A DNA stretch of 64,000 nucleotides from an uncultured Ectothiorhodospiraceae bacterium (GTDB lineage Bacteria; Pseudomonadota; Gammaproteobacteria; HK1): the NCBI GenBank assembly GCA_964420925.1, contig CAYQVB010000021.1:587-64586 (forward strand), read 5' to 3'. The position numbers and the translations under genes were made by a program. Positions 32,012 to 49,498 of this stretch are shown here, in pieces. The notes beneath the pieces are model-generated. The model was not told the DNA's origin, did no database searches, and saw only the letters and a list, made by a program, of their open reading frames with translations. Within the stretch, counting starts at the first letter, position 1; each line of letters starts with the position of its first letter.

Positions 32012-32439
32012 CCGTCGACTCGGCTCGCTCGCATCGACATTCGGTCGCCCCATGCTGCCCCGGGTCGGGATGGCGGGCGGCGTGCACATGAGGGCCGGTG
32101 CCCGGTCGGAGCGCCTCGTGCTCCATCCTGGCGGAAGCCCCACCAGGGATTGACGGCGGGGTCTCGATTGAGTGATCCGGTCCCCTGCCCGGTACATCGT
32201 CCGGCGCTGCGGGAGACTTCAACTCTCGGCGCACATGTTGTGGCGGCCCGCGTCTCGGCAGGGTACTTCACGCTGGCCTCTCGGAGGCTTCGCTTTTCCG
32301 GTGAAACGACGTATGCTAGCGAGCGGTGCGCTCTCGAATTCATACGCCCAAACTGCCGAATCACAGCGAAAACTGCATGTCTTTCAGTCACTTGAAGCAC
32401 AGTTCGGTCACCTCACCAACACGAGCAACGGAGAAGAAG

Positions 32440-34254
32440 ATGATCAAGAAGCTACTTCCACTCGTTGGCTCCATCGCCGTGGGTGCGGCGATAGGGGTTC
32501 CGGGGGTCGCCTCGGCCAACGATGAATTGATGGCGTTGTCCGCAGACGCCAACAACTGGGTGATGTGGGGCAGGACCTACGACGGTTCCCGCTACAGCCC
32601 TCTCAATCAGATCAACAAGGAGAACGCCGGCAACCTGCAGGTCGCCTGGACCTTCTCCACCGGGGTTCTGCGCGGACACGAAGGCGGGCCCCTGGTAATC
32701 GGTGACACCATGTGGGTGCATACCCCGGTGCCGAACAAGGTGTTCTCGATCAACCTCAACGATCAGACCATCAACTGGATGTACGTACCCAAGCAGGATG
32801 AGGCGGTGACCGTACCCGTCATGTGCTGCGACACGGTGTACCGGGGCCTCGCGTATGCCGAAGGCAAGATCTTCCTGCAGCAGGCGGACACCACCCTGGT
32901 CGCGCTCGACGCGATGACCGGTGAAGTCATCTGGAAGGCCGTGAACGGCGATCCGACCATCGGCGAGACCAACACCAACTCCCCCATCGTGGTCGGAGAC
33001 AAGGTGTACACGGGTATCAGCGGAGGCGAGTTCGGGGTACGCGGCTTCCTCGCCGCCTACAACATCAACGACGGCAGCCTGGTATGGAAGGGTTACAGCA
33101 CCGGTCCCGACGAAGAGATGCTGATCGACCCCGAGATGACCACCTCGATGCTGAAGCCGGTCGGCCCGAACTCGAGCCTCGACTCGTGGAAGGGCGACCA
33201 GTGGAAGATCGGCGGAGGCACGACCTGGGGTTGGTTCACCTATGACCCCGATCTGAATCTCATTTACTACGGCACCGGCAACCCCAGCACCTGGAACCCC
33301 GTGGTGCGCCCCGGCGACAACAAGTGGTCGATGACCCTCTTCGCACGCGATGCGGATACCGGAATGGCGCGCTGGGTTTACCAGATGACGCCTCACGACG
33401 AGTGGGACTATGACGGCGTCAACGAGAGCATCCTCGCCGACATCGAGATCGACGGCCAGATGCGCAAGGTGCTCGTGCACTTCGACCGCAACGGTTTCGG
33501 TTACACCCTCGACCGGGTGACCGGTGAGCTGCTGGTGGCGGAGAAGTACGATCCTGCCGTCAACTGGGCGACCCACGTCGACATGGAGACGGGGCGGCCC
33601 TCGGTCGTGGCGCGCTACAGCACCCGCTGGCACGGTGAGGACGTCAACACCACCGACGTCTGCCCGGCCGCGCTCGGCAGCAAGGACCAGCAGCCGGCCG
33701 CCTACTCGCCGGACACCGGCCTGTTCTACGTGCCCACCAACCACGTGTGCATGGACTACGAGCCCTTCTACGTCGACTACGTGGCCGGGCAGCCCTATGT
33801 CGGGGCGACTCTCAGCATGTTCCCGGCCGGGCGCGTGATGGGCGACGGCACCGACAACCTCGGCAACTTCATCGCCTGGGACGCGGCGAAGGGCGAGATC
33901 GTCTGGTCCATCCCGGAGGCCTTCTCGGTGTGGAGCGGCGCGCTCGCCACCGGCGGCGGCGTGGTGTTCTACGGCACCCTGGACGGGTACCTGAAGGCGG
34001 TGGATGCCGACACCGGTGATCTGCTCTACAGCTTCAAGACCCCGTCCGGCATCATCGGCAACGTGAACACCTGGGTGCACAACGGCAAGCAGTACCTCGG
34101 AATCCTCTCCGGCCTCGGTGGCTGGGCCGGCATCGGCATGGCCGCGGGTCTGGAAGGCGATACCGACGGTCTGGGTGCGGTAGGCGCCTACAAGGGCCTC
34201 TCCCAGCACACCCAGCTCGGAGGCGTGCTGACCGTCTTCGCCCTGCCGGGCTGA
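32440..34254 (+). CDS. xoxF: PQQ-dependent methanol/ethanol-family dehydrogenase, XoxF (lanthanide-dependent) type
   Basis: ATG 32440 follows GGAGAAG, and a signal peptide is present. '[21 protein letters not shown]', the vicinal disulfide 'VMCCDTV' and 'GGTTWGW' are present. '[11 protein letters not shown]' carries the extra Asp (D-Y-D, nt 33406-33414) characteristic of Ln-dependent enzymes. Confidence 0.9.
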
Positions 34255-34313
34255 GACTTCTTCGATGGGTGACGGCGGCCACGGAGGCCGCCGGATCCCT
34301 CTTCCGACTGCAG

Positions 34314-34350
34314 CGGCTGCGGCCCCTTGAGCCGCAGCCGTTTTCGTTTC
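34314..34350 (+). terminator. Rho-independent terminator/attenuator between xoxF and xoxG
   Basis: 10-bp stem CGGCTGCGGC / GCCGCAGCCG with loop CCCTTGA, followed by TTTTCGTTTC. Confidence 0.6.
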
Positions 34351-34444
34351 CGCGAGGGACTCGGGTCGAGTCCTTCCGGGAAGGTGCTTCCACTCCGCGC
34401 CGCCTCAGCTCGCGGTGCCGGTCACATGTCAAGGGGACTCGAAC

Positions 34445-34897
34445 GTGAAACCCTTCCTTCGCTCCATCCATACGGGCCTGGCCGGATCGGCGCTCCTCGG
34501 CATCTTCGCCGCGCTCCTGACCCCCTTCGCCCTGGCCCAGGACGTGCCCACCTACGAAGGTCACATCCAATGCGAGACTGAAGGCTCGCCCAGATCCTGC
34601 AAGATCGATCTCTGGCTGACCCGCGGGTACCGCGCGTTCAGCCAGTGCCAGGTCTGCCACGGGCTGGACGGCAGCGGCAGTACCATCGGACCGAGCCTGC
34701 TCGACAAGATGAAGGAAATCGACCATGCGCGTTTCATGGAGGTCGTCACCAAGGGCATGCAGGGAACGATCGGGGTCATGCCGGGTTGGGAGAACAATCC
34801 CAACGTCATGAAGTACGTCGACCAGCTCTACGCATACCTCATGGCGCGCTCGGACGGAGTGCTTCCGGGAGGCAAGGTGAAACGCTACGACAGATGA
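34445..34897 (+). CDS. xoxG: Mono-haem cytochrome c (XoxG / cytochrome cL-like)
   Basis: Haem site 'CQVCH', a signal peptide, and a position directly after xoxF. GTG 34445 has AAGGGGA upstream (the track start is 34415). Confidence 0.8.
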   Translation: MKPFLRSIHTGLAGSALLGIFAALLTPFALAQDVPTYEGHIQCETEGSPRSCKIDLWLTRGYRAFSQCQVCHGLDGSGSTIGPSLLDKMKEIDHARFMEVVTKGMQGTIGVMPGWENNPNVMKYVDQLYAYLMARSDGVLPGGKVKRYDR

Positions 34898-34907
34898 GGT
34901 ATCGGGA

Positions 34908-35783
34908 ATGAATGCGAAGACCCGAATGCCGGCGGCGACGTTCCGCGCCACGCTTGCCGCGGGGCTGATGGTGGTGACGATGGGGGGCGCGACCAGCGTC
35001 GCTGCCGAAGACGCGCGAAGCGCCTTCAAGGTCTGCGCGGACCCCCATTACCTCCCGTGGTCGAACGAAGCGGGGGAGGGCTACGAGAACCGGATCGCGT
35101 CGCTGCTCGCCGGCGAGCTCGGCCTGCCGGTCGAGTACACCTGGTTCCCGCAGCGCATGGGCTTCATCCGGAACACCCTGCGCGCCAAGGACGACGACGG
35201 AGATTACAAGTGCGACGTCGTGATGGGATTGCCCGCAGGCTACGAGCTGGCGATCACCACCGACCCCTACTACCACTCGACCTACGCCCTGGTCTACGTG
35301 AAGGGTCGAGGACTGGATGATATTCGCTCGGCCACGGATCTGCTGACACTCGATCCGGCCCAGCGTGATCGGCTTCGCTTCGGTCTCGCCGAACGAAATC
35401 CCGGCACGGTGTGGCTGGCGAAGCACGGACTGCTCGACCTGCTCCAGGTCGCGTACGCGTCGCAGCACGGCGACCCGGAGGTGCAGCCGGGGCAACTCGA
35501 GCGCGAAGACCTTCTCGCGGGGAACATCGATGTCACCATCATGTGGGGACCCATCGCGGGCTACTTTGCGCTCAGCAACCCCGACACTCCGATCGCGGTG
35601 ATTCCGATGGCTTCGGAGCCCGGAGTGCACCTGCACTTCGGAATCTCGGCCGGCGTGCGTTTCGGGCAGGGAGAGCGAAAGAACGAGCTTCAGGCCCTGC
35701 TCGACGAAAACGCGGACGCCATCGAAACCATACTCCGCGAGTACGGCGTCCCCCTGGTGGATGAGAACGGCGCGCTGATTTGA
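34908..35783 (+). CDS. xoxJ: MxaJ/XoxJ-like periplasmic binding protein
   Basis: Signal peptide. 'FKVCADPHYLPWSNE..GYENRIASLLAGELG' is the MoxJ-family N-terminus. The gene order is xoxF-G-J. Confidence 0.8.
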   Translation: MNAKTRMPAATFRATLAAGLMVVTMGGATSVAAEDARSAFKVCADPHYLPWSNEAGEGYENRIASLLAGELGLPVEYTWFPQRMGFIRNTLRAKDDDGDYKCDVVMGLPAGYELAITTDPYYHSTYALVYVKGRGLDDIRSATDLLTLDPAQRDRLRFGLAERNPGTVWLAKHGLLDLLQVAYASQHGDPEVQPGQLEREDLLAGNIDVTIMWGPIAGYFALSNPDTPIAVIPMASEPGVHLHFGISAGVRFGQGERKNELQALLDENADAIETILREYGVPLVDENGALI

Positions 35784-35991: not shown

Positions 35992-36732
35992 CTACTGGAG
36001 GTGCCAGTTGCCGTTGCGGTCGCGGCAGGCTACCCGGTAGCCCTGCTCGGTCCGGTTGCCCACCCGTACCGTCTGGTGGTACTCCCGGCACGGATTGCCA
36101 TAGTCGTCCCGACCGTTTCTGGTAACCCTCACCTCGCCGCTCGCGCTGCCGCTCAGGTTCGCGGGGTTTGTCCAGGTGGTCGCGCTGTTGCCGCCGGCAT
36201 CGAGGGCTCGGCGAATCGCCTGGCTTTGGCGCCGCTGTGAGTGGAGGTCGAGACTGCGGGATTGCACGCCGGTGTGACCGGAGGGGCCGGTTGTGTTGCC
36301 GCCATCCGCGAACTGGTTGAGAAATAGCATCCCGGCCAGCACGCCCAACGCGATACCGGCTCCCTCCTCCCAGTCGTCGTTCCGGCGGTGGCCATGGCGT
36401 CTCGGCTTCGGGTGCCCGTGACGTCGCCACTCCCGGTGGACGTGCCAGCCGAGCCCGTCGTGACGATGCTCCATCGTATGGAGGGTCCAGCGTCCCTTCC
36501 CGGATCCGCGACGGTGGTCGTGCCGGTACCAGTCGTGGCGCCAGTGGCCGTGTCTTCCGTGGTGATGCCGGTGGTCTCCGAGGTGGCGTCCGGCTCCGAC
36601 ATGCACCGTCGAAGCTCCGAACCAGGTGGCGTGGTCGTGCAGACCGAACAGTCCGGCGGCAGATGCGGGCAGGGCCGTCAAAACGACGCCCATTGCGACC
36701 ACGGTGCCAAGGAAGCTACGGTGTACTTGCAT
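35992..36732 (-). CDS. Secreted His-rich protein with glycine-zipper and C-terminal surface-antigen (17-kDa antigen/COG4520-like) domain
   Basis: ATG 36732 follows GGAGGAG, with signal peptide 'MQVHRSFLGTVVAMGVVLTALPASAAG'. By hand count there are 22 His in about 97 residues. 'GAGIALGVLAGMLF' is present. The C-terminus reads 'GNPCREYHQTVRVGNRTEQGYRVACRDRNGNWHLQ'. Confidence 0.7.
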   Translation of the reverse strand: MQVHRSFLGTVVAMGVVLTALPASAAGLFGLHDHATWFGASTVHVGAGRHLGDHRHHHGRHGHWRHDWYRHDHRRGSGKGRWTLHTMEHRHDGLGWHVHREWRRHGHPKPRRHGHRRNDDWEEGAGIALGVLAGMLFLNQFADGGNTTGPSGHTGVQSRSLDLHSQRRQSQAIRRALDAGGNSATTWTNPANLSGSASGEVRVTRNGRDDYGNPCREYHQTVRVGNRTEQGYRVACRDRNGNWHLQ

Positions 36733-36956
36733 CGACGTGCTCCTCCGAGGGCGAAGCGGGCCGAGGGGGAGTCTTTCTCGTTCTCTCTCGCCATGCCCTT
36801 TGCTATTCGCGCTCCATCTCGCAACGCGTACGCCGATTCTACGCCCTTCAATCACTCCCCGATCGATTCGTACTTTCCGCCAAAAAGCGTAAGCGGGCCA
36901 GCCCCCGGGACGACTCCTTTCGAGGTCGTGTCCGACCGAGTTCCGGACTCCGAGAC

Positions 36957-39900
36957 TCACGCCATCCGGGCCGCATGGGTGATCTTGTCCTTCGTTTTGT
37001 TCAGGTCGGTGACCACCGCGTAGCTCCAGGTGCCGAAGCTGGCCTCTGCATTCACAGCTCGAACCCATCGCTCGGCCGCCTGCTCCTTTACCTCTTTCAG
37101 AGGGTCATAGCCCTTGGTTTCCAGGATCAGGTAGCGCGGCTTGTCGCCGTTCAACCGGACGATGAAATCCGGGAGGTACTCATGCTGCTCTCCGTTGTGG
37201 AGATACGGGATCGCGAAGCCGAGGCCGGCATTCTTGACGAACGAGTGCACGAGATCGTGAGTATCCAGCCGGTAGGCCGCTGACTGCTCCCACTGTGCGG
37301 TGTCGGGAACGACTGCGTTGACATGGCTCTTGATGACGGGATAGGGCTCTCGCCGGGTCTCGAAGTCGACATCGGCCGTGGTGCCTGGACCCCGACCAGT
37401 CTCGTAGCGGGGGATCTCGGCATCCTCCCCGCTCTCGTCATCCGGTCGGATCGCGGCCGACAGCCGTTCCACCAGCAATCCGTACCACGGCGAGAGGAAG
37501 GCATCGACGGCCTGCGCCGGTTCCACCGGGCGGACTTTCTCCTCGACGTAGCGAGCAACGATGGCGGCAAGCTGGGTAAACAACACGTGAACCGGGACAT
37601 CGCAGCCCGGCTGTTGTCGATAGTCCCGAGTCAGTTCTCGCGCCATCTCGAACACCAGTTTCTGTGGGCGGTGGTCTGTGCGGTACGGATTGAGATCCAC
37701 GCGTTCGAGACGCCCCGGGCCAACGAGCGAAGGTCGTCCGGTATTGCTCGGTAGCCCCGCCTTCATCTCCACCTCGGGCGGAATGTCCATCGGGTTAAGG
37801 TTCAGCGGCGCGATACTCTCCCAGTCGACCTTGAGACGATGCCGGATGCGCTGGGTGTACCCCTCGACGCGAGGGAAACGGATCTCGAGGCCGGCCTTTG
37901 CAGGGAGCGCCCGGATCTGCCAAGTCTTCGGGGGCGGGCGTGGTCCATTTTCCCGAGTGGTCTCCTTTAGCGGCACGATCTCGAAAGGGACTCCGAAGAT
38001 CTTCGCCACTTCCTCTCCGAGCTTTCCGTCATCTCCCACGGCATAGCTGGAGCGGCGCAGACCCCGGCCGACGACCTGCTCACAGAGCAACTGCGACATG
38101 AAGGGGCGAAGCCCGACGATGTGGGTGACGGTATTGCAGTCCCAACCCTCGGTCAGCATCCCGACACTCACGATGCAGCGCACGTCCCGCCCCGGTGGAT
38201 GGAGGGGGCGTTCGAGCTTCTTTGCCAGTGCCGCAAAACCCTCCGGGTAGATGGATCGTCCCTGCACGTCCCGCGGCCAGTCGGTCTTCCCGACCGTATC
38301 CAATGTGAGGCGCATCCACCGATCTGCATCGGTCTTGGCCGCTCCACCGTCCGACTCGCGCACGACCTTCGAGTCCACCCGGATGGTTCGGATGTCTTTG
38401 TCGGTGTTGCTCAACCCCTCGATGCGGGCAGGCGGGATCCCCACCGGCGCCTCGTCTTCGGCGAGCCACCGGTAGACAACCTTCGCGAGCGCGGTGTTTT
38501 TGCACACGATAATAAAGACCGGCGGGCGGCGCTCTCCCTCGCGCTCACTCCATTCCCGGCGCAGCGTCTCCCACAGTCCGCCGAGCATTGCGATCGGCAC
38601 ATGTGCGTACTTGAGCACGGCCTCCGGCTTCACGCTGCCCCGTCTCCCACCACGCTCGGCAGGAGTCAGTCTCGGCAGGATCCATCGCCAGATGTTGAAA
38701 TAGCCGGGTATGGAGGAACCGCTCGTGTCCCGTACCGCGAGCTGCGGAATCTTGACCAGCCCGGACTCGATGGCGTCGACGAGCCCAAAGTCGCTTACTA
38801 CCCAAGGGAAAGGCCGGTTGGCGTCCTGGCCGACCCGCCCCAAGTAGTAGGGAGTGGCGGAGAGATCGATGCAGAGATTGATGCCGCGGTGCTTATGGAT
38901 GCGATCGAGGCCGTCGACCCACACCGTGGCCTCTCGATAGAACTCCTCGCTCTCGTCGGCCTCGCCGAACAGATCCGCCTCGCCCTCGTCCGGCTCCTCG
39001 TGTCGGATTCGGTATGCATGATGGGCCTCGTCATTCATGACGAGAATGTTGCGTTTTCCCCCTACCTCGCGATCGAGTACCCGCTCGATGAGCCTGGTGT
39101 CGCTCTCGACGTAACGGACCGATTCCACCGAGACCGACTTGAGGTTTCCTTGCCGATCCTGGTGCTCATTGCGAACGGAAATCAGACCAATGGCCGTCTG
39201 GCGTTCGAGATCCTCCGGTGTCAGATAGCGAATCCCCCGGGCGGTCGTCGTTTTTGCACCGATGCGGATGGTTTCCCGAGTGCGGACTTCCCGGCCGGTA
39301 CGGAGCACCTTCGCGGATTGGCCGGCAGCCTGGGCAGTCTTGGGCTCGAACACATGCCAATTGGTGACCAGCACATGTCCGCGGACAATCTGGGGCATGA
39401 GGTGCGAGGGGACCAAGTCGCGCGTCCGGTACAGGCTCGCCTCTCCACCACTTGGCTTCAGCTCTTCGAGCCGGTTGCGGATGGTTACGTTGGGACATAC
39501 GACCAGCACCACGTCCGAATAGCGTGCGTCGCCTCGATTCGAAATCTTGTTGAGAATGCTCCAGGCCGCGAGCATTCCCATGACCGTAGTCTTCCCGGTG
39601 CCCGTCGCCATCTTGCATGCGTAGCGCCGGAAGGCCTGGAATCCCTCCGCCTGCGCCTCGGGACCCGGTTCATCGAGCGGGACATCGATCCCTTGCAGGA
39701 AGTCCGCGCGCGCCTCGGTGAGAAAGATGATCGTCTCGGCGGCCTCAAGCTGGGCGAAGAAGAGCCGGTGCTTTCTCCCTTCCCGGCGCCAATAGCGCAT
39801 CAGCTCCATGGTCGTTCGAGTTACGCCCCCCTCGCCGCGCAACGCCAAGGGCCTCCACTCGGCGAGCTTCGTGCGGATCCGGTTGACCAGCTTCAATCCA

Positions 39901-40082
39901 ATGGCTATCCCGACTCCCTGGTGCTCTGATGCCATGGCACGCTCAGGTCGCCGGTAGTAGTACATGGCCGGGCGCCGGCCCGAGCGCCGCTCCGGTGGCT
40001 CGTGCTCCAGGATCCACCAATGCTCCCTGGGTTCCTCGAAAGGCGAGTTGAGGATCGGTTCAGGGACCTCGCGCGCGTTCAC
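36957..40082 (-). CDS. Type III-like restriction enzyme Res subunit (SF2 helicase + PD-(D/E)xK nuclease)
   Basis: Helicase motifs 'MATGTGKTTV', 'VMNDEAHHAY' and 'DLSATPYY'. C-terminal nuclease-like 'EYLPDFIVRL..RYLILETKGYD'. The GTG start overlaps the upstream stop (GTGA, 40079-40082). Confidence 0.85.
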   Translation of the reverse strand: MNAREVPEPILNSPFEEPREHWWILEHEPPERRSGRRPAMYYYRRPERAMASEHQGVGIAIGLKLVNRIRTKLAEWRPLALRGEGGVTRTTMELMRYWRREGRKHRLFFAQLEAAETIIFLTEARADFLQGIDVPLDEPGPEAQAEGFQAFRRYACKMATGTGKTTVMGMLAAWSILNKISNRGDARYSDVVLVVCPNVTIRNRLEELKPSGGEASLYRTRDLVPSHLMPQIVRGHVLVTNWHVFEPKTAQAAGQSAKVLRTGREVRTRETIRIGAKTTTARGIRYLTPEDLERQTAIGLISVRNEHQDRQGNLKSVSVESVRYVESDTRLIERVLDREVGGKRNILVMNDEAHHAYRIRHEEPDEGEADLFGEADESEEFYREATVWVDGLDRIHKHRGINLCIDLSATPYYLGRVGQDANRPFPWVVSDFGLVDAIESGLVKIPQLAVRDTSGSSIPGYFNIWRWILPRLTPAERGGRRGSVKPEAVLKYAHVPIAMLGGLWETLRREWSEREGERRPPVFIIVCKNTALAKVVYRWLAEDEAPVGIPPARIEGLSNTDKDIRTIRVDSKVVRESDGGAAKTDADRWMRLTLDTVGKTDWPRDVQGRSIYPEGFAALAKKLERPLHPPGRDVRCIVSVGMLTEGWDCNTVTHIVGLRPFMSQLLCEQVVGRGLRRSSYAVGDDGKLGEEVAKIFGVPFEIVPLKETTRENGPRPPPKTWQIRALPAKAGLEIRFPRVEGYTQRIRHRLKVDWESIAPLNLNPMDIPPEVEMKAGLPSNTGRPSLVGPGRLERVDLNPYRTDHRPQKLVFEMARELTRDYRQQPGCDVPVHVLFTQLAAIVARYVEEKVRPVEPAQAVDAFLSPWYGLLVERLSAAIRPDDESGEDAEIPRYETGRGPGTTADVDFETRREPYPVIKSHVNAVVPDTAQWEQSAAYRLDTHDLVHSFVKNAGLGFAIPYLHNGEQHEYLPDFIVRLNGDKPRYLILETKGYDPLKEVKEQAAERWVRAVNAEASFGTWSYAVVTDLNKTKDKITHAARMA

Positions 40083-41806
40083 GGCTCGACTCCGAACGCC
40101 CGACAGATGGCGTTGAGCTTCTCCACGACTTCAGGGTGGATCTCCTCGGGGAGCATGAGCGCCGCGATCTCGTGATAGCGGGTATAGGGTAGGCCGTGGA
40201 GTTCGGCCGCTTCAAGCAGCGGGGGAAGGAGTTCCGTGCGTGCCTTGGTTCCGTTCAGGAGCAGGTGTTCACCGAGCGGATCTTCGACGACGCCTAGAGG
40301 AAACTCACGGCGCATGTACGCGAGCATATCTTCGACGTGCGGCGCGGCGGCATCCGCTCCAATCACCGACTCGACAAAGCAGGATAGTGCATTCGGGTGT
40401 ACGAGGTAGCTTTCGATCTCATAGCGCCGCCAGTGAAGCCGCTGCAAGCCGATACCCGTGATCTCGGTATCCGGAACCTCCGGCCGCGCATCCCGGTCGC
40501 GAAGCTCGACTCCGGGAAGCCCTTCACGCACGAGCTGCAAGGCGTCGTAATGATCGCGAGCCCGGATCCCCGGACGCCTCTCCTGGGCCTGGAACACCAG
40601 AGGTTTCCACATCAACTCAGTGGTGAGCAATCCGGTCGCCCGGTGTTCGAGCGTCGCCGCCCACGCGCGCAGGATGTTGATGTCTGTGTAGTCCTCAACG
40701 TAAAGAACGCCGCGGACTCCCAGTGCTTGCATGACGTCCGCATTGCTGAGTACCCGGAGGGAGGTAATCACCCGGCCACGCTCTTCGTTGTCGGCTACCA
40801 TCCTCGGTTCGTGAAGCATGACACACAGCTCGCGTGGCTCGACGGAATTGATGACCACTTCGGAATGGGTCGCAACAATGAGCTGTGAGTGTTGCCGGGC
40901 GGCTACCGCCCGCAACTCGTGATAGATAGCGTCCTGCAGGATCATGTGCAGGTGTGCGTCCGGCTCGTCCAGGAGCAGTACTGAACCTTCGCGGGTATTG
41001 AGGAAGGTAAGCAGCATCAACACCTGCTGGAACCCGCTGCCCGCGCTCGCGATGTCCAGCGACGGCCCACCATCGGTCATCGTGTATTCGGCCCGGATGT
41101 ACGGCCCACCAGAATCGGGAGGCAGTAGTATGTAGCCGAAGAGTTTCATGATGGAGCTCTGAAGCGCGGCCCATGTAGGTTCGTTACGGTGCGCCGTTGC
41201 GAGCAGATTGCGTAGCACTTCACCGGGGCGACCGAGACCGAGGAGCCGCTCTATCAGTGGCGGCTGAAACAGCGGCTCGTCCGTGCTCAAGCCCGTCATC
41301 GGTGGCACGAATACCGCCTGGAGATCGAGTTCCCGCAGCGTTGCCGCCGGGGCATCCCATCGGGGTCGGACATAGATCTGTTCGGTGCTGTCCGCAATGA
41401 ACTCCATGGTCACCGACCAGCCCGCGTCGTGCTGAACCTCGATCTGAATCTCCTGCCCATGCTTGCGATATCCACGGTCCCTCCATAGAAGGTCGAAGCT
41501 TCTTAGCGGAACCGTGGTGAACGCCTGCCGGGCGATTGGAGCGCGGGTGTATCCCTGGCGCGGATTGAAGTCGTTGAGCTCGCGCCAACGCTGCAAGGCG
41601 AGCGACCATGATGCAATCGCCTGGAGCACCGTCGTTTTGCCGGTGTTGTTGGGACCTGCCAGCACCACGTGCCCGGGCAGATGGAACTCAACTTCGCTGA
41701 AACGCTTGAAGCCGCGGATGCGGACCGTGCGGATCACGTCCTGGCCTCCGAGACGGGTTTGGCGTACATCAACCGGTATCGCGGGCGTCTCGGGCATCGG
41801 ACGCAT
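40079..41806 (-). CDS. ABC-type (RecF/SMC-like, AAA_15/21) ATPase fused to a Toprim-like (DUF4435/OLD/RloB-like) C-terminal domain
   Basis: Walker A 'GPNNTGKT', signature-like 'SAGSGFQQ', Walker B 'LLLDEPDAHLH' and H-loop 'VATHS'. C-terminal motifs are 'VLYVEDYTDINIL', 'ELRDRDARP' and 'WRRYEIESYLVHPNAL'. Confidence 0.75.
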   Translation of the reverse strand: MRPMPETPAIPVDVRQTRLGGQDVIRTVRIRGFKRFSEVEFHLPGHVVLAGPNNTGKTTVLQAIASWSLALQRWRELNDFNPRQGYTRAPIARQAFTTVPLRSFDLLWRDRGYRKHGQEIQIEVQHDAGWSVTMEFIADSTEQIYVRPRWDAPAATLRELDLQAVFVPPMTGLSTDEPLFQPPLIERLLGLGRPGEVLRNLLATAHRNEPTWAALQSSIMKLFGYILLPPDSGGPYIRAEYTMTDGGPSLDIASAGSGFQQVLMLLTFLNTREGSVLLLDEPDAHLHMILQDAIYHELRAVAARQHSQLIVATHSEVVINSVEPRELCVMLHEPRMVADNEERGRVITSLRVLSNADVMQALGVRGVLYVEDYTDINILRAWAATLEHRATGLLTTELMWKPLVFQAQERRPGIRARDHYDALQLVREGLPGVELRDRDARPEVPDTEITGIGLQRLHWRRYEIESYLVHPNALSCFVESVIGADAAAPHVEDMLAYMRREFPLGVVEDPLGEHLLLNGTKARTELLPPLLEAAELHGLPYTRYHEIAALMLPEEIHPEVVEKLNAICRAFGVEP

Positions 41807-41870
41807 GTCCTCGCAATCGTCCTTGAGCAGGCCAGAGGTCCACGCAACGGAGTAGCTCTGCCGAAGAGGA

Positions 41871-44633
41871 TCATGTTTTCGTTTCGGAGAGCGACTTGAC
41901 CACCAGCAGTTCGTTGCCCCGGTCGTCGATGACTTTCACCGCGATCTGGCCGTGTTCCCCTGACTGAAACGGGGCGCTGAGCGTCCCGGACAGGTGTGCC
42001 CACACGCTGTCCTCGAACTCGCCCCGGAGCGAACGCTTGATGCCCTCCCACGCCGATGTCCGGGGAAAGAACGCCTGACAGACGTGAAAGCAGAGTCCGT
42101 TATAGTCCGTGTCCAGGAACCACGCCGGGACATCGCGGCCCTCCCGGTGGTCGGAATCCATCTCGATTGGATCGAAAACATCGAGGCCGAGCAGCTCGAC
42201 TTGGTAGTCATGTTCTCCAGATCGCGTGATGCGTACGTCGGGTAACCCGCACACCGAGAAGATTTGACTCGAGCGGAGGTTGCGAAGCAGGTCACCCATG
42301 ACGAGGTCCATGCTCGCCTGGACGTAGGTGGCGGCCACCCCTACCGCTTCCTCGCAGTCGTCTATCAGGCGCCTCGCGTCGGGTTGGATGGCAAACCCGA
42401 TGACGTAGAGGTGCTCGTATCCCTTGGCATACGCCTCGCGCGCCGCTTCGAACACGAGGGTTTGGGAGACCGCACCATTCTCAGAGCCGAAGACGATCGC
42501 GACCGCGTTGTCTCCCTCGCCCTCGACTTGCGCCTCGGCGGAGAGGCTCATCGTTCGAGCAGGTCGACGGATCTTGTCCAAGCTAACCGTTCGGCCGCCT
42601 CCAAGATGCAGCACCGGCGAACGCCGCAGCACCTCGATCATGCGTTCGACATGGTCGGCGTGGGTCACCGTGGCGGCCACATCTGCGGAATCCTCCTCGC
42701 CGTCCCCCTCCCAGTCCACCGGGGTCGGTATGGTCGCCTCTACGCAGAACGGCCCGCTTACCCGGGTCACTCCGTCCTCGGCTTCAGGCCGATCGACGAG
42801 GACTTCCTCCTTTGGCGGTTCATTGTTGGCTATGGACTTAAGTGTGACATGCGGCACGATCCCGCCTACCTCCTCTCCCTTTGCGCTTTGCCGGCGCCGA
42901 TAGTGAAAACCTCCCGCGGGACCTCGAGCCGGATCCTGGAGCGCATAGAACGCGAATGTGCTGGTGAGCAGTCGTTGCCGTGCAAGGGCGATTGGAACCC
43001 GGGAGGTGTCGGTGGTGATCCAACGACGCCCCCACTTCTCCGCGCAGTACGCCGTCGTCCCCGAGCCGCAGGTGGGGTCGAGGACGAGGTCGCCCGGATC
43101 GGAAGTCATCAGGAGACAGCGTTCGACGACCTTGGGGTTCGTCTGGACGACGTAGGTCTTCTCATCGGTAAAGCTGCCGGTGAGGGTATCCGTCCAGAGA
43201 TTGCCTCGTGTCTTGTAGGGGAAATCCGAGGGGAAACGCCGGTATTGCAAGCTGTTGGCCGCGACGTGAATCCGTCCCGTGGCCGCGAGACGTTCGAGCC
43301 CATCGGGATAGTTGGCTGCCCAATGACGATTGGGATTAGGCACGTAGACCTTACCCTCAAACTTGAAAGGTTGAGGCTCCCGTGGTGGGCCTGGAGATTG
43401 CATGTTGTCCGGTTTGTAAAGACGACCACCTTCTGGCAACTGCACTTCCTGGCGCTTCTCCGCCGCCGTTAAGCCACGATAGCTTCCGTCCGGGAGCAGC
43501 ACCCATCGGGCATTCCCCTCGCCGAGGACCACCGGCTGCTCCTCGAACAGCTTCCGTACCTTCAGTCGCTCCGGATCTCGTGCGTACCACAGCAGGAAGT
43601 CGCCCAGCGTCGCGAGGGTCCGCGTCGGGAAACCTGACGTAGTCTGGAAACTGATCTGCGAGACGAAGCACTCCGCCCCGAACACTTCATCGAGTACTTC
43701 GCGGACATGGTGCAGGTTGGTGTCCGACATCTGGACAAAGATGCTCCCCGACGGATGGAGCAGATCCCGTGCCAGCAGCAGCCGGTCACGGAGATAGGTC
43801 AGGAACGAGTGCACGCCCAGCTCCCAGGTGTCCCGGTACGCTTGCACCATCTCCGGTTCGCGCACCATGTGCTGGTCGTCTCCGTGCGTGACGTCGCGCT
43901 TGCGTACGAAGGGCTGGAAGTTGGAGCCGAACTTCACAGCGTAGGGCGGATCCATATAGATGGTCTGCACCTGTCCGCCCAAACCCTCGTAGCGAAGCAG
44001 GGAGTTCATCACCACCAGGGAATCGCCGAGGATCAGCCGGTTCACCCACCCGTTCTGGTGTTCGTAGGCCTTAAGCAACCGGTCTCGGATCGACAAGTCA
44101 CTCTCGCCGAAGAGATCGAACATGTTGATCTGGCGGTCCCGGGTATGACCTTTCAGCGTCTCGAGGATCGCGGAGGTCGAGAGACGCTCGTGAACGAACA
44201 GGGGCAGAGTGGGAACGTCGAAGGACAGCCGTTCGGCCTTCCCTGCCCAGTTGAGGAAGGGCTCGGAGAGCGCGTTCAGCTCGGCGGCGTCTTCCCGGGC
44301 CGAGGCGAGCTCCTGCTTGATCTCTGCAAGGCTGTCCGGGAGGATGCCATCGTTTCCGCTATGTCCGGCGGCGACGATGGCCGAGAGCTTCTCGATGCGA
44401 TCTACCAGCGTGACGAGCTTTGCTTCAGCCTGCTCGCGCGCGGGATTCTGCTGGTCCCAGTCGAGAGCCGGAGCAAGAGAAGAATCGTAACGATAGGTAG
44501 CCGGCGGCTTCTTCTTGCGGAACTGCGCCTGCGTGCCGATATCCGGCCGGAGCAACGCGCTCGCTTCGGGATGCGCGTAGCTCTTGGTGCTCCGTTCCCT
44601 CCTGGCACGAACTTTCGTCTTCTTCTTTGCCAC
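41871..44633 (-). CDS. Type III-like Mod DNA methyltransferase (beta-class N6A/N4C amino-methyltransferase), 920 aa
   Basis: Motif IV 'IYMDPPYAVKF' lies upstream of the AdoMet motif I 'VLDPTCGSGTTAY'. The N-terminus is basic ('MAKKKTKVRARRER'). Confidence 0.85.
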   Translation of the reverse strand: MAKKKTKVRARRERSTKSYAHPEASALLRPDIGTQAQFRKKKPPATYRYDSSLAPALDWDQQNPAREQAEAKLVTLVDRIEKLSAIVAAGHSGNDGILPDSLAEIKQELASAREDAAELNALSEPFLNWAGKAERLSFDVPTLPLFVHERLSTSAILETLKGHTRDRQINMFDLFGESDLSIRDRLLKAYEHQNGWVNRLILGDSLVVMNSLLRYEGLGGQVQTIYMDPPYAVKFGSNFQPFVRKRDVTHGDDQHMVREPEMVQAYRDTWELGVHSFLTYLRDRLLLARDLLHPSGSIFVQMSDTNLHHVREVLDEVFGAECFVSQISFQTTSGFPTRTLATLGDFLLWYARDPERLKVRKLFEEQPVVLGEGNARWVLLPDGSYRGLTAAEKRQEVQLPEGGRLYKPDNMQSPGPPREPQPFKFEGKVYVPNPNRHWAANYPDGLERLAATGRIHVAANSLQYRRFPSDFPYKTRGNLWTDTLTGSFTDEKTYVVQTNPKVVERCLLMTSDPGDLVLDPTCGSGTTAYCAEKWGRRWITTDTSRVPIALARQRLLTSTFAFYALQDPARGPAGGFHYRRRQSAKGEEVGGIVPHVTLKSIANNEPPKEEVLVDRPEAEDGVTRVSGPFCVEATIPTPVDWEGDGEEDSADVAATVTHADHVERMIEVLRRSPVLHLGGGRTVSLDKIRRPARTMSLSAEAQVEGEGDNAVAIVFGSENGAVSQTLVFEAAREAYAKGYEHLYVIGFAIQPDARRLIDDCEEAVGVAATYVQASMDLVMGDLLRNLRSSQIFSVCGLPDVRITRSGEHDYQVELLGLDVFDPIEMDSDHREGRDVPAWFLDTDYNGLCFHVCQAFFPRTSAWEGIKRSLRGEFEDSVWAHLSGTLSAPFQSGEHGQIAVKVIDDRGNELLVVKSLSETKT

Positions 44634-44663
44634 GTCTACTCCCGCCCCTCCCGCATCATCTCT

Positions 44664-46112
44664 TTACCCGTCGCGATGGGATAAGTCACTGACGATCCAA
44701 GTCGCGTCCGCTGACGGATCACGAATAGCTCTGTGACCCACCATGTAGCAGTACACGCTGGTAGGTATGAAGTCGAAAAGAATCTCTTCGGGACCCTGAC
44801 CAAGTCTTGCCGACTGAGTGCGCGTGGTAACGAGAGGTGTAACTCCGGAATGCCGAACTGCGAATTCCGTCAGGCCCCTCAGTTCGCCTGATCGCTCGAC
44901 ATACCGATCTGACCACTTGACGTCTACACACCAAGCAGGTCGCTGGCGGCCGTCGAGATGCACAATATCCACCTCACCGCTTCGCCACCGTGCATAGTGG
45001 AGATCAATATCGGAGTGAAACCACTGAGCGAAGACAGCAGTCTCGGCAAGCGGGCCCATTTCCTTGTCGTCCTTAGCTACCGGACCGAACAACGCGCAAC
45101 GCAGCGCTGGCGTAGTGACGTACACCTTGAATTGATTGGCGCGCTTGAAACGGCGGGCGTTGTGATCGATACGGTGGACCACCTTGATGAGGAATGCGGC
45201 CTCCAGATATTGCAAGTAACGCTTGAGCGTTGGCTTGGTCACGCCGGATTGCTGAGACAGTGCCTCCAGTGACACTTCTCCGGCGGTGTTGAATGCCAAC
45301 GTCATGAACAGTGCGTTGAGCTCCTGCACATCCTGGATGCCATAAAGGCTCGGGAGGTCGCGCAGCAGGACCTTCTCAACGATGTCGGTGCCGATGTAAC
45401 GGGCGGAATCGGAACGGATAGCCGGAGACGAGATGGATTCCGGATAACCTCCAAAGTTGACGTAGTCGACAAAGTGGCGGTTCAGCTCTCCGATGTCGCT
45501 TACTGTGTATAGGCCGTCTGGCTCCTCGCGTTCGACCAAGCCCTCGATACCCTGCAAGTCGAGGTATTCATAAAAGGTCAATGGCGGCAGAAGGAAATCC
45601 GTGAAGCGACCGGCTCCCGATTCGATGCTCTTGAGCCGGAGCGCTGCCGCGGCCGAACCGGACACCACGCATCTGGTGCCCGGGTGAGCATCCACGAAAG
45701 CTTTGAGGTGGCGTTCCCACTCGGGCAGATACTGAATCTCATCCAGGAACAGCACTTGGGGACCATTGGGGTTTTCGCTCGACCGGCGAATCTCCTCCGC
45801 GGCTTCCTCGATGGAGAGTCGGGTGTAGAGCGGCTGATCGAGCGAGATGTAGCCGAGGTCCTGAGGTGCGTATTCACCGCCTTCGAGCAAGCGCGCGATA
45901 ACGTGATGTAGCAACACCGTCTTCCCAACGCGGCGCGGGCCCATGAGCACCACCGCCCGGCGCACTCCGGTTTCCTCCACGAGACGTGCGAAGCGCTCAA
46001 AGTACGCGCGCGGCTTCAGCTCTCGATAGTCGTCGCGGATTCCCCCGCCATCCCACCAAGGGTTTTCGGCGCGGATGCGATGGCGCCGCTGACTCGAGGA
46101 GATCTCCCGCAT
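44664..46112 (-). CDS. COG1373-type AAA+ ATPase (AAA_14 + DUF4143-like C-terminal nuclease-fold domain)
   Basis: Walker A 'GPRRVGKT', Walker B-like 'VLFLDEIQ', wHTH-like 'LKRYLQYLEAAFLIKVV', and C-terminal 'GEVDIVHL..WCVDVKWS' (D..D-x-K). Confidence 0.8.
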   Translation of the reverse strand: MREISSSQRRHRIRAENPWWDGGGIRDDYRELKPRAYFERFARLVEETGVRRAVVLMGPRRVGKTVLLHHVIARLLEGGEYAPQDLGYISLDQPLYTRLSIEEAAEEIRRSSENPNGPQVLFLDEIQYLPEWERHLKAFVDAHPGTRCVVSGSAAAALRLKSIESGAGRFTDFLLPPLTFYEYLDLQGIEGLVEREEPDGLYTVSDIGELNRHFVDYVNFGGYPESISSPAIRSDSARYIGTDIVEKVLLRDLPSLYGIQDVQELNALFMTLAFNTAGEVSLEALSQQSGVTKPTLKRYLQYLEAAFLIKVVHRIDHNARRFKRANQFKVYVTTPALRCALFGPVAKDDKEMGPLAETAVFAQWFHSDIDLHYARWRSGEVDIVHLDGRQRPAWCVDVKWSDRYVERSGELRGLTEFAVRHSGVTPLVTTRTQSARLGQGPEEILFDFIPTSVYCYMVGHRAIRDPSADATWIVSDLSHRDG

Positions 46113-46199
46113 ACGGCGAGGTTAGTGGTACCGCGGCCAGGAGTCAACATAGAGAAAGTCGACTTATCTTATGTGATGGTTTGGAGAAAAATACCGTAG

Positions 46200-46343
46200 T
46201 TACAACGAGTTGAGTGCTCCATTCCGGGATGCGCTCAGCCTCGCGTCGATACCGGCCGCCGCCAAGCGCTCGCATCCTCGTCCCGGGATGACGGCGAATG
46301 CCGGGTTTCCATTGCCATCGTGGATGACCTGCGCTTTGGTCAT
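46200..46343 (-). CDS. Short ORF (47 aa) resembling the N-terminus of an antitoxin-type protein; possibly a remnant
   Basis: Not in the track. ATG 46343 has a strong GGAGG 6 nt upstream. The peptide starts 'MTKAQVIHDGNGNPAFAVIPGRGCERLAAAG..' and ends at TAA 46200-46202. Confidence 0.35.
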   Translation of the reverse strand: MTKAQVIHDGNGNPAFAVIPGRGCERLAAAGIDARLSASRNGALNSL

Positions 46344-46448
46344 GTCGCCCTCCTATGCTCTCGTCACAACTGGAGCTCGTGCTCCCTCGACTCCCGGGCG
46401 CGACGGACTGAGCAGACGACCGAGTCGCGACTCACGGCCTCCCCCTCT

Positions 46449-47642
46449 CTACCCCTTCACGCACACGACCTGCCTGAGCGCGTGCACGACCTCGACCAAG
46501 TCATCCTGATTGGCCATTACGGTTTCGATGTCCTTGTACGCGGCCGGGATCTCGTCGACAACTCCCGCATCCTTCCGGCACTCGACCCCGGCCGTCTGCC
46601 GGACCAGATCGTCCGCGCTGAACGCCTTCTTCGCCTGTGAGCGCGACATCCGGCGTCCCGCGCCGTGGGCGCAGGAGCAGAAGCTCTCCTCGTTGCCCTT
46701 GCCACGCACGATGTAGGACTTCGCCCCCATCGAGCCCGGGATGATCCCGAGCTCGCCGAGGCCGGCACGGATCGCACCTTTCCGAGTGACGTACACATCG
46801 ATGTCGAAGTGGTGCTCGCGGACCACGTAGTTGTGATGGCAGTTGACCGCGTGCTCCGTGACCTCGAATGGCGGGAGGGTGACATGCAGCGCATCGAGAA
46901 CGAGCTCGAGCATCTGAACGCGGTTCTCGGAGGCATAGTCCTGCGCCCAACCGAGCGCCTGGACATAGAGGTCGAAGGACTCCGTGCCCTCGCGCAGGTA
47001 GGCGAGGTTCTTGTCCGGCAGCTTGACGTCGAGCGCGAGCATCTCCTCGCGGGCGAGTGCGATGAAGTGACGACCGATCCGATTTCCGATCCCTCTCGAT
47101 CCCGAGTGGAGCATCACCCACACGCGGTCCAATTCGTCGAGGCAGACCTCGATGAAGTGGTTGCCGCCTCCGAGCGTGCCGAGCTGGCGTTGCCACCCGT
47201 CCCGGGTTTTCATCATCGTGGCAAGGGCCGACACCCGGTCGACGAGGGCATCGTAGCCCTTCTTCAGACGCTCGACCCCGCTCGTTCGTACATCGCGTTC
47301 GTCGTGCATGTGGAAGCCGACCGGCACCCGCGCTTCGATCTCCGATCGAAGGGTGCTGAGCGAATCCGGTAACGCGATTGCGTCGATCGAGAGCCGGGCG
47401 GCGATCATCCCGCAGCCGATATCCACTCCGACCGCAGCCGGAACGATCGCGTCGCGAGTCGGAATCACCGAGCCAACGCTCGCCCCGATTCCGGGGTGTA
47501 CATCCGGCATTGCCGCCACATACGGGTACACGAAGGGCAAGTGCGCGACGTGTTCGAGCTGCTGCACGGCATTATGTGTGACATCCTCGGTCCAGATGCG
47601 CACCGGCACCGGGGTGTGCTCGATGGTCCGCTTGACGGTCAT
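46449..47642 (-). CDS. rtcB: RNA 3'-phosphate/5'-OH ligase RtcB
   Basis: 'DVHPGIGASVGSVIPT', 'GVDIGCGM', 'GGGNHFIE', 'HSGSRGIGN', 'NCHHNY' and 'SCAHGAGR' are all present. ATG 47642 gives 397 aa. The track extension to 47855 was rejected. Confidence 0.9.
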   Translation of the reverse strand: MTVKRTIEHTPVPVRIWTEDVTHNAVQQLEHVAHLPFVYPYVAAMPDVHPGIGASVGSVIPTRDAIVPAAVGVDIGCGMIAARLSIDAIALPDSLSTLRSEIEARVPVGFHMHDERDVRTSGVERLKKGYDALVDRVSALATMMKTRDGWQRQLGTLGGGNHFIEVCLDELDRVWVMLHSGSRGIGNRIGRHFIALAREEMLALDVKLPDKNLAYLREGTESFDLYVQALGWAQDYASENRVQMLELVLDALHVTLPPFEVTEHAVNCHHNYVVREHHFDIDVYVTRKGAIRAGLGELGIIPGSMGAKSYIVRGKGNEESFCSCAHGAGRRMSRSQAKKAFSADDLVRQTAGVECRKDAGVVDEIPAAYKDIETVMANQDDLVEVVHALRQVVCVKG

Positions 47643-47854
47643 CGCTTCATATCCTCTCGTCTTCGGCTCTCGACGATACCCGGACAGCTTCGATCGCCAG
47701 CGAAATGCGCAAAACCAACGAGGTATGGGAAGTACCATATGGGCCGGAATCCGGAAAGCCCGGTCCCGGCTGCGCCGGCCCGGAGTGCCTTTCCCGAGAC
47801 GGGCGGGGGATCCGTTCCCCGCTCCGTCCCGGGAAGGCTTGGCGTGCCGCTGCA

Positions 47855-49009
47855 TCAGTCGGCCTTGATCCCGATGCGCACGGTGTCGTGGAGGACGCCG
47901 TCCAAACCGCCGAAGACGGTCAGACGCTCGACCTTGTCCGCCACCTTCTCTAGCGCCTCCAGCTCCTTGAGGCGCATGAGGGTCGGGTTCTCGTCCATGA
48001 GCCGGGCCGTGTTGAGCAGCGAACGGGTCGCCGCCGTCTCTTCACGGCGCTTGATGACGTTGGCCTGCGCGACCTTCTCCGCCTCGACGACCTGGTTGAA
48101 GAGCTCGCGCATGTCGCCGGGGAGGATCAGGTCCTTGACACCCACCCCCGTCACCTCGATTCCGTGCACCGCGACCTTCTCGCACACGTAGTCGAGAACC
48201 GACCGGTCGAGTTGTCCCTTGTTCTCGAGCAGCGCGTCCAGGGTGCGGGTACCGACCGCCTGCCGGAGACCGAACTGGAGCTCTCGGTAGAGGTAGTCGG
48301 TGAAGCGATCCAAAGTGCTCCGCGCCTTCACCGGATCCGAGACCCGGTACGACGCGGTCATGTTCACTCGAATCGTCACCTTGTCCCGGGTCAGGATCTC
48401 CTGGCCCTGGACCTCCATCGGCTGCAGGCGTTGGTCGATCTGCTCGACCTTTACGGTCCGGTTGAAGGTCCAGTACGCGTACCGCCCCGGATCGAGCGTG
48501 CGCACGAGCCGGCCGTCCACCAGCAACAGGCCGAGGTGGCGGTCGGCAACCTCGGCCACGTACACGTAGCGATAGCGTAGCTTGGCGAGCGCCGACTCCT
48601 CGCGGGGCCGCGCGAGCAACGACAGCACCGGCTCCGAGACTTCCGGATCGGCGTCGAGGTCGATCGGATCGACACGCACCTCAGCCGCGTCCTTCCAGTA
48701 GTACCGGCGCGAGCCCGGCGGCAACACATCGGTGAGAACACCGTCTACGTAGACCAGTCCCGCCTCGTCGTCGCCGAGACGCACGATGATGAAATGGTCC
48801 TCGAGGAGCGCCGGCACCGAGCGGGCCAGCACGTCCAGGTGCGGGTGCTGGAACTCAACCCGCGAAATGTCGTGGATCTCGACCTCCACTCGACGGTGCG
48901 GATCGGCGATCCGGAGTACCCCCGGTGCGAGCACGGCCTGAAGCAATCGGTCCCGAAAGAGCAGGCCCCGCTCGTGCCGGGCAATAACGATACGTTTGTA
49001 GGGATACAT
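47855..49009 (-). CDS. SPFH/band-7 (slipin-like) domain protein with an extra N-terminal domain
   Basis: 'EILTRDKVTIRVNMTASYRVSDP', 'GIEVTGVGVKDLILPGDM' and 'AEKVAQANVIKRREETAATRSL' are typical SPFH and coiled-coil segments. Confidence 0.85.
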   Translation of the reverse strand: MYPYKRIVIARHERGLLFRDRLLQAVLAPGVLRIADPHRRVEVEIHDISRVEFQHPHLDVLARSVPALLEDHFIIVRLGDDEAGLVYVDGVLTDVLPPGSRRYYWKDAAEVRVDPIDLDADPEVSEPVLSLLARPREESALAKLRYRYVYVAEVADRHLGLLLVDGRLVRTLDPGRYAYWTFNRTVKVEQIDQRLQPMEVQGQEILTRDKVTIRVNMTASYRVSDPVKARSTLDRFTDYLYRELQFGLRQAVGTRTLDALLENKGQLDRSVLDYVCEKVAVHGIEVTGVGVKDLILPGDMRELFNQVVEAEKVAQANVIKRREETAATRSLLNTARLMDENPTLMRLKELEALEKVADKVERLTVFGGLDGVLHDTVRIGIKAD

Positions 49010-49412
49010 CGCTTTGCCCTCCTGAGCGAAATGGTTGATGGATGGTTCTCATGGCCTTCCTCTTCACCGGTACTCGCGCGAGCGAGACGCCACCGACCGG
49101 CATGGTCAGGTTCCAGACACGGCTTCACTTCTCCTCTGTTGCGAAAATGCTCGATTCATGGGATTCACTGGCAAATGCAGGATATGGGTGGAGGCGGCCC
49201 ACGACGGTGGGCGGGCGCCGCGGGTGCACCATTGCGAGACCGCCGGCCGGTCGATCGCGGTCCATTCCATCGGAAGACAGGACCTCCCGGTCCGATCCGC
49301 GACCGCCGTAGCGGCGGCTTGGCGACAGCGCGGCACATCGGCGCTCAAGGTCGCATCCGGCGCTGTGCTCGCATGACTGGGCGTCACGCGCGCACCGGAC
49401 CGCCTCCAGGGA

Positions 49413-49495: not shown

Positions 49496-49498
49496 GAG

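Follow-up and report, generated by a model that had tools for sequence, protein, structure and literature searches.

A predicted single-chain ABC-ATPase/Toprim protein encoded between Mod and Res of a Type III-like restriction-modification operon

The 64,000-nucleotide stretch analysed here, referred to as the window, comes from contig CAYQVB010000021.1 (positions 587 to 64,586 of the forward strand) of an uncultured Ectothiorhodospiraceae bacterium (assembly GCA_964420925.1). Its minus strand carries four genes in the order AAA_14-DUF4143 ATPase, Mod, a predicted fused ATP-binding cassette (ABC) ATPase/Toprim gene, and Res, and it is the fused gene that concerns us. The original prediction placed this gene inside a restriction-modification (R-M) operon, and it does lie between Mod at 41871-44633(-) and Res at 36957-40082(-). 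The host operon falls under the definition of a Type III-like R-M system, with Mod followed by a Res that is a superfamily 2 (SF2) helicase with a PD-(D/E)xK nuclease. The features of the three central genes are as follows, with residues numbered throughout on a 575-amino-acid (aa) open reading frame (ORF).

41871-44633, minus strand: Mod, Type III-like N6/N4 DNA methyltransferase (PADLOC MTase_III, 5.4e-140; Pfam N6_N4_Mtase, 4.4e-25)
41745-41749, minus strand: Shine-Dalgarno-like GGAGG, 7 nucleotides (nt) 5' of GTG 41737, read directly from the sequence
40079-41737, minus strand: predicted fused ABC-ATPase/Toprim gene, 552 aa from GTG 41737; the family consensus begins at residue 24
40817-41737, minus strand: predicted OLD-type ABC ATPase domain, residues 24-330 (Pfam, PADLOC and family-profile matches)
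41633-41656, 41024-41047, 40946-40978 and 40862-40876, minus strand: ATPase motifs, respectively Walker A, signature, Walker B and H-loop
40712-40816, minus strand: helical linker, residues 331-365 (AlphaFold helices 342-352 and 355-363)
40397-40711, minus strand: predicted Toprim-type core, residues 366-470 (structural model, fold matches, DUF4435 matches in relatives, conservation)
40082-40396, minus strand: predicted C-terminal helical bundle, residues 471-575 (AlphaFold secondary structure; motifs such as 'EIHPEV.EKLD' kept family-wide)
36957-40082, minus strand: Res, BPTD_3080-family Type III-like restriction endonuclease (NCBIfam NF046055, 1015.8 bits against a cut-off of 800; Pfam ResIII)

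The ORF originally reported at 40079-41806(-) was confirmed in the ORF list as the longest frame, 575 aa from ATG 41806. Every motif read from it at the time is in place: GPNNTGKT at residues 51-58, SAGSGFQQ at 254-261, LLLDEPDAHLH at 277-287 and VATHS at 311-315, followed in the C-terminal part by VLYVEDYTDINIL at 367-379, ELRDRDARP at 434-442 and WRRYEIESYLVHPNAL at 459-474. Because homologues start with 'MIRTVRIRGF', which corresponds to residue 24 of the 575-aa ORF, and because GGAGG stands 7 nt upstream, the true start is probably GTG 41737, which would give a product of 552 aa.

Judged from its sequence, the N-terminal half is an OLD-type ABC ATPase with an intact motif set. Two Pfam families match it above threshold, AAA_21 at 67.2 bits (cut-off 27) and AAA_15 at 63.5 bits (cut-off 32.1), and the PADLOC ATPase models that match include NsnB (2.9e-22), AriA (2.5e-20), PtuA, GajA, Old and AbiLi. 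When a profile of 42 diverse relatives was compared with PDB sequences, it found Thermus OLD (6p74, 1.5e-15) and GajA (3e-10), and it also matched retron and Septu PtuA, plus AriA. The Walker A, signature, Walker B and H-loop motifs are all invariant in 46 close homologues.

The C-terminal half is best read as a genuine, divergent DUF4435-like Toprim domain that current models miss, an assignment we base on DUF4435 matches in relatives, an AlphaFold model, the ranking of Foldseek matches and an hhalign alignment to P2 Old. Residues E371, D375, D437, D439 and W459/R461/Y462-L468 are strictly kept in the 46 close homologues; in the 42 relatives, which are 28-55% identical, D375, D437, W459, E465, Y467 and L468 are invariant and E371 is kept in at least 90%. 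With conservation across both the close homologues and the diverse relatives, the C-terminal motifs are not a product of chance. The same 42 relatives match the window C-terminus at E values from 1e-13 to 1e-96. An exhaustive search with residues 331-575 returned 330 representative proteins, nearly all of whose full-length members combine the ATPase with the C-terminal domain, and the family consensus for this domain reads 'VLYVEG.TD..IL ... L.D.D ... W.RYEIENYL'.

Nine of the 42 diverse C-termini individually match PF14491 (DUF4435), the best at an E value of 9.4e-07. Any other family is matched by three of them at most; the Pfam model OLD-like_TOPRIM (PF20469) was matched by a single relative (E 0.18). 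The DUF4435 matches that were inspected span positions 4-106 of the 238-position profile. All of the matching members belong to one subgroup, made up of solitary genes, and neither the family consensus nor ten members of the other subgroup gave a DUF4435 match. Aligned by hhalign, the family and P2 Old are collinear from Walker B into the first Toprim motif (probability 89%, E 2e-06), with 'VLYVEG.TD' of the family paired with 'VLLVEGKTE' of Old. A tblastn search of plasmids with a DUF4435-like C-terminus gave no match.

The AlphaFold model of the C-terminal domain, built from the diverse alignment, has a predicted local distance difference test score (pLDDT) of 96.4 and a predicted template modelling score (pTM) of 0.92. 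Its alpha/beta core has four strands: strand 1 ends at E371 and is followed by D375, D437-x-D439 comes after strand 3, and E463/E465 lie within the 'YEIESYL' helix. A Glu after strand 1 and a DxD after strand 3 are the signature of Toprim domains (PMC12065111), and the five acidic residues E371/D375/D437/D439/E465 resemble E26/D30/D88/E90/E122 of AriB in pattern and spacing (AriB residues from PMC11464382). The top six Foldseek matches in the PDB are Toprim regions of Xanthomonas and Burkholderia Class 2 OLD proteins (6njv, 6njw, 6njx, 6nk8; prob 0.97-1.0) and AriB (8ux9_A); retron Eco2/Eco8, GajA and Thermus OLD rank lower. The Toprim-like, DUF4435-type domain that the original prediction had seen by eye is supported by the relatives' DUF4435 matches and by a model whose best fold matches are Toprim nucleases, its top six being OLD Toprim regions and AriB.

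Several results weigh against this assignment and against the function we build on it below. Pfam and PADLOC scans with the C-terminal 245 aa of the window protein alone gave no match at E values up to 10, and the inspected DUF4435 matches in relatives score 13-23 bits, under the 27-bit gathering cut-off. In the proposed profile check of the C-terminus, the relatives match DUF4435, and the window's own sequence matches neither DUF4435 nor RloB. In hhalign, the hidden Markov model (HMM) profile/alignment of the C-terminal domain (A3) aligned with the Toprim half of P2 Old alone at a probability of 2.8%, over the first motif only. Searches of PDB sequences with A3, and with a profile (A5) made from the Toprim core in the DUF4435-like subgroup, brought up no Toprim protein. 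The top Foldseek matches have E values of 6e-3 to 4e-2, none reaching 1e-3, and template modelling (TM) scores of 0.42-0.48, and the viral BFVD library gave no significant match. The full-length AlphaFold model, made from the 46 close homologues, was poor (pLDDT 57), so it was left out of the fold search, and the ATPase-Toprim interface was not seen. Finally, the nuclease activity, its substrate, its trigger and the functional link to R-M are all things that we infer.

Within the operon, the stop codon of the ATPase-Toprim gene and the GTG start of Res overlap by 4 nt as 'GTGA', and the gene is predicted to be translationally coupled to Res. No promoter-like site was found throughout the operon, and 0 of 4 terminator-like sites fall at gene junctions. 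Res combines its SF2 helicase with a C-terminal PD-(D/E)xK nuclease, with D972, E988, K990 and the DEAH motif invariant; because these helicase and nuclease motifs are unchanged, the Toprim domain is not a stand-in for a lost nuclease.

We compared the arrangement across 82 loci anchored on the ATPase and 65 informative metagenome loci anchored on Res, the latter anchoring freeing the slot counts of ATPase-directed bias. In about 55 of the 82 ATPase-anchored loci the genes abut in the order Mod-ATPase-Res, and across this set identity to the window copies declines in step for Mod, ATPase and Res. The slot between Mod and Res in the Res-anchored loci holds the fused gene in 25 cases, no insert in 23 (Mod abuts Res) and other cargo in 17, so the fused gene is accessory, and the R-M family taken together can do without it. 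In the loci that have it, it has been inherited stably along with Mod and Res over the long term. Its presence changes state 8 times on the Res tree, against about 32 times after shuffling, and it has remained beside its R-M partners while identity fell from about 80% to about 45%; the Spearman correlation of pairwise distances is 0.72 for Res-ATPase and 0.74 for Res-Mod. No residue or indel in Res or Mod tracks the presence of the ATPase.

These counts bear on whether the ATPase-Toprim protein might be an integral third restriction subunit, needed by this Mod/Res clade to restrict unmethylated DNA as in MADS, where the ABC ATPase/Toprim pair mad3-4 is needed for defence (bioRxiv 10.1101/2023.03.30.534895). 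The 4-nt overlap with Res, the conserved gene order and the near-equal co-diversification of Res with the ATPase and with Mod would all suit such a subunit. However, many loci manage with Mod abutting Res or with unrelated cargo between them, Res retains invariant PD-(D/E)xK and helicase motifs of its own, Res and Mod lack correlated changes, and the gene is also found alone; we regard an obligate subunit as very improbable.

The remaining cargo of the slot is varied. It includes AAA_21 ATPases with DUF4276 partners and an AAA_15 ATPase with a DUF3226 partner, both of these split ATPase + Toprim-superfamily pairs, as well as AAA_15 ATPases next to a small partner of unknown type, an AAA_14-DUF4143 ATPase, a DUF3368 PIN-like protein and DUF1828/1829. 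Profile A3 and the slot-resident DUF3226 protein aligned in hhalign at a probability of 16%, over the first 'VEG.(S/T)(D/E)' motif only. Two loci (L047, 6670-12486; L048, 10644-13544) have two or three distinct ABC-ATPase modules stacked in the slot. The modules are an AAA_15 ATPase of 466-608 aa accompanied by a partner of about 155 aa, the fused gene itself, and an AAA_21 ATPase accompanied by a DUF4276-like protein. The inserted cargo of L048 comes after a 309-aa ORF with a Res-like beginning.

Such a slot could simply be a permissive, well-expressed insertion site, and the fused gene an independent abortive-infection gene of the Class 1 OLD kind with no connection to R-M. Heterogeneous cargo such as the PIN-like protein, DUF1828/1829 and the AAA_14-DUF4143 ATPase fits this explanation, as do the existence of solitary family members and a Res and Mod that show no adaptation to the gene's presence. 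But the cargo is enriched for modules of an ABC ATPase with a Toprim-superfamily protein, some stacked as described, and the fused gene has kept its R-M partners across a wide range of identity with only about 8 gains or losses. We consider hitch-hiking alone unlikely.

In about 27 of the 82 ATPase-anchored loci, R-M genes are missing from the vicinity and no neighbour is conserved, and several of these copies are 63-76% identical to the window protein. Because the DUF4435-matching members sit in the solitary group, the sequences suggest that the R-M-embedded clade may derive from solitary fused genes. Apparently decayed R-M remnants, a 101-aa Res fragment in L004 (10713-11012) and a 217-aa Mod fragment in L012 (7434-8078), lie beside the ATPase-Toprim gene and suggest that it can outlive its R-M partners. 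At L002 (9001-11848), a homologue 76% identical to the window protein stands outside any R-M system. Next to it come an 89-aa ORF, weakly matching an MqsA-like antitoxin, and then a 311-aa HNH_2 nuclease; an HNH_2-like ORF adjoins the ATPase gene at L019 as well. Viral contigs yielded distant relatives only, at 34% identity or less.

A distant fused homologue occurs in a different methylation-based setting. In a BREX-1 operon of the Nostoc sp. ATCC 53789 plasmid pNsp_c, pglX and pglZ are separated by a gene (NZ_CP046706.1, 70190-72067; locus L083, 6001-7878) for a 625-aa 'AAA family ATPase' that has the fused ATPase + 'E..D / DGD / EIENYL' Toprim layout (hhalign probability 87%). The same operon has a HEPN-domain gene between brxC and pglX.

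This homologue is one of the observations that would favour a PARIS-like guard, in which the ATPase senses anti-restriction proteins (Ocr-like DNA mimics) or an inhibited Mod/Res and then sets the Toprim nuclease free, in the manner of PrrC with EcoprrI and of PARIS with Ocr. The embedding of the gene in an R-M operon, its coupling to Res and its co-inheritance with Res and Mod point the same way. In PARIS it is an ABC ATPase that senses Ocr (PMC11464382), and the same scheme has been put forward for OLD-ABC/Toprim modules lying within BREX loci (PMC12839542). On the other hand, about one third of the ATPase-anchored loci are without R-M genes, some of them encoding close homologues of the window protein; the ATPase does not have insertions of the size that form the trigger-binding pores of AriA; and neither Res nor Mod varies with its presence. 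We regard a guard as possible but rather unlikely. A stronger version, which we think doubtful, would make the Mod/Res junction a dedicated 'guard slot', with the fused protein physically monitoring Mod/Res and firing on tRNA or DNA when a phage inhibits restriction. Were this version true, the three genes would work as a single immune system with two integrated layers, a Type III equivalent of PrrC-EcoprrI, and the ATPase + DUF4276 or DUF3226 pairs would be interchangeable guards.

The reading we prefer, to which we give a probability of roughly 60%, is that the window gene encodes a single-chain OLD-family-like defence nuclease, composed of an ABC ATPase, a DUF4435-like Toprim domain and a helical bundle, and carried as an accessory, co-transcribed passenger of the Mod-Res operon. 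As such the protein would most likely be a second line of defence beside R-M, and in other genomes the module is autonomous. If P2 Old, GajA and PARIS are a guide, the ATPase would dimerise and act as sensor and gate, and ATP binding or hydrolysis would license a two-metal Toprim nuclease. The nuclease would then cleave tRNA, as do AriB and P2 Old, or DNA, and such cleavage would halt infection by a phage that has evaded the R-M enzyme or put it out of action; one candidate for the trigger is an anti-restriction protein.

P2 Old and AriB are ABC-ATPase-gated tRNA nucleases, the gating consisting of ATP hydrolysis in P2 Old and of trigger-induced release from AriA in PARIS (PMC12445682, PMC12409363, PMC11464382). 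AriB cleaves tRNAs once AriA has sensed Ocr (PMC11464382, PMC12409363), and the GajA ATPase controls its Toprim domain (summarised in PMC12065111). Modules of OLD-ABC and Toprim in BREX loci have been proposed as backup effectors following an anti-anti-restriction logic (PMC12839542), and for the window gene, to which the original prediction ascribed such a backup role, it is plausible.

That ABC ATPase + Toprim modules can lie within methylation-based systems is already known in general terms. What appears to be new is, firstly, a large family that has no name in our sources and whose Toprim is invisible to Pfam; secondly, the long-standing three-gene association with BPTD_3080-type R-M, although the ABC-ATPase classification of Krishnan et al. 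2020 may already list this arrangement; and thirdly, the Mod/Res junction as a cargo hotspot. The family comprises more than 5,000 proteins at E <= 1e-5 in many bacterial phyla, most of them reached through the ATPase half. So far labelled a generic ATPase in databases, it is now defined, the Toprim of its fused relatives having escaped Pfam models, and its recruitment into a Type III-like R-M operon has been stable. In this R-M family, ABC-ATPase/Toprim defence modules have landed repeatedly at the Mod/Res junction, and layered defence, known from PrrC, PARIS and BREX-embedded OLD modules, would extend to Type III-like systems. The result is a compact three-gene system for asking if modules of this kind protect restriction enzymes from the anti-restriction factors of phages.

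Directly 5' of Mod, at 44664-46112(-), lies the AAA_14 + DUF4143 ATPase (PADLOC candidate system PDC-S01, 6.6e-53), which may be a further defence gene of a small island; a protein of this type fills the Mod/Res slot in locus L122. Further along is a gene for an RtcB RNA ligase (46449-47855(-), Pfam 5.5e-126), its start codon abutting the end of an SPFH/Band 7 gene (47855-49009(-)). An RNA-repair ligase near a probable tRNA or DNA nuclease is suggestive, yet RtcB occurs in none of the 82 ATPase-anchored loci, and because it is not conserved in related loci we keep it apart from the ATPase-Toprim system. The GC fraction is 0.59-0.64 over positions 36000-49572, which contain the R-M/ATPase region, against about 0.68 in the flanks, and this low-GC region ends near a tRNA-Met gene at 49498-49572(-). 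No integrase was found at 36000-49572. The 3' end of the tRNA-Met has no second copy within the window, and so there is no att-like island boundary. On the other side, a histidine-rich 358-aa ORF at 35992-37068(-), an uncertain gene call, shares about 110 nt with the 3' end of Res; its sole Pfam match is a weak one to 17kDa_Anti_2 (E 0.0077). At 32326-35783(+) we see by eye an ORF resembling pyrroloquinoline quinone (PQQ)-dependent alcohol/methanol dehydrogenases, then a small cytochrome c-like ORF (CxxCH) and then a 291-aa ORF with no Pfam match; to the eye this looks like a methylotrophy-type cluster.

Several known systems were considered and set aside. Menshen (NsnABC) is defined by NsnA (DUF262) and NsnC as neighbours and by an NsnB with a DUF3696 C-terminus (PMC12065111). 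It was rejected: the neighbours here are Mod and Res, there is no DUF3696 match, and the NsnB model covers residues 25-322 only. Gabija was rejected in that no UvrD-type GajB is adjacent and the flanks encode a methyltransferase and a ResIII-type helicase-nuclease. The Type-1 BR system (DUF499 + DUF1156 methyltransferase) was rejected on its defining components. MADS shares with the window locus an ABC ATPase and Toprim pair, MAD3-MAD4, in a methylation-based defence operon, and weak PADLOC/NCBIfam matches to mad3/MAD3 were obtained. MADS is, however, defined by MAD6-8 (bioRxiv 10.1101/2023.03.30.534895), which are absent at the window locus, and it was rejected: the four proteins scanned gave no PADLOC match to MAD6 or MAD7, the sole mad8 match is weak (E 0.001) and falls on the DUF4143 ATPase, and MAD3 scores 44.7 bits against an NCBIfam cut-off of 420.

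The OLD-ABC + Toprim modules embedded in BREX and BREX-related loci (PMC12839542) likewise place an ATPase and a Toprim nuclease among the core genes of a methylation-based system. They differ in that the window host is a two-gene Type III-like R-M system of the BPTD_3080 family, not BREX or BR, and in that the association of the window gene with R-M is old and co-diversifying.

Nucleases of the ABC-type-NTPase class encoded between R-M subunit genes are exemplified by PrrC, at the EcoprrI Type Ic locus, and by the RloA/RloB 'restriction-linked ORFs'. PrrC differs from the window protein in having another nuclease domain and a Type I host system, and RloA/RloB differ in that RloB (PF13707) was detected neither in the window C-terminus nor among the 42 relatives. 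PMC12065111 names PrrC and RloC as nucleases under ABC-ATPase control. AbiL was rejected, there being no RloB match in these same sequences and the AbiLi model matching the ATPase only.

The original prediction likened the protein to a fused PARIS/AbiL-type effector, and this classification is the part of it that we do not retain. Like PARIS, the window protein does pair an ABC ATPase with a Toprim domain, here predicted to be DUF4435-like; its five acidic residues follow the AriB pattern, AriB itself ranks among the best fold matches, and merged single-gene AriAB forms are documented (PMC11464382). But membership in PARIS is unsupported: the window C-terminus has no DUF4435 match of its own at E values up to 10, and the PADLOC AriA/AriAB models give two matched stretches, the better of which (residues 240-346) lies in the ATPase part. 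Moreover, Walker A K57 is about 225 residues from Walker B D280/E281, against about 354 in AriA (K39-E393, PMC11464382), so that the window ATPase is without about 130 residues of AriA insertions, the coiled-coil and the parts forming trigger-binding pores. PARIS is also often borne by phages or satellites, whereas the window protein has no close relatives among viral contigs.

Class 1 OLD nucleases (P2 Old, Thermus scotoductus OLD) resemble the window protein in being single chains of about 530-590 aa whose N-terminal part is an OLD-type ABC ATPase and whose C-terminal part holds a Toprim domain with Glu + DxD, and many members of the window family are, like them, solitary genes. They differ in that the predicted Toprim of the window family is nearer to DUF4435 than to Pfam OLD-like_TOPRIM, and in that they stand alone whereas the window clade lies inside an R-M operon. 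In organisation, then, the closest known relatives of the window protein are Class 1 OLD nucleases and merged AriAB.

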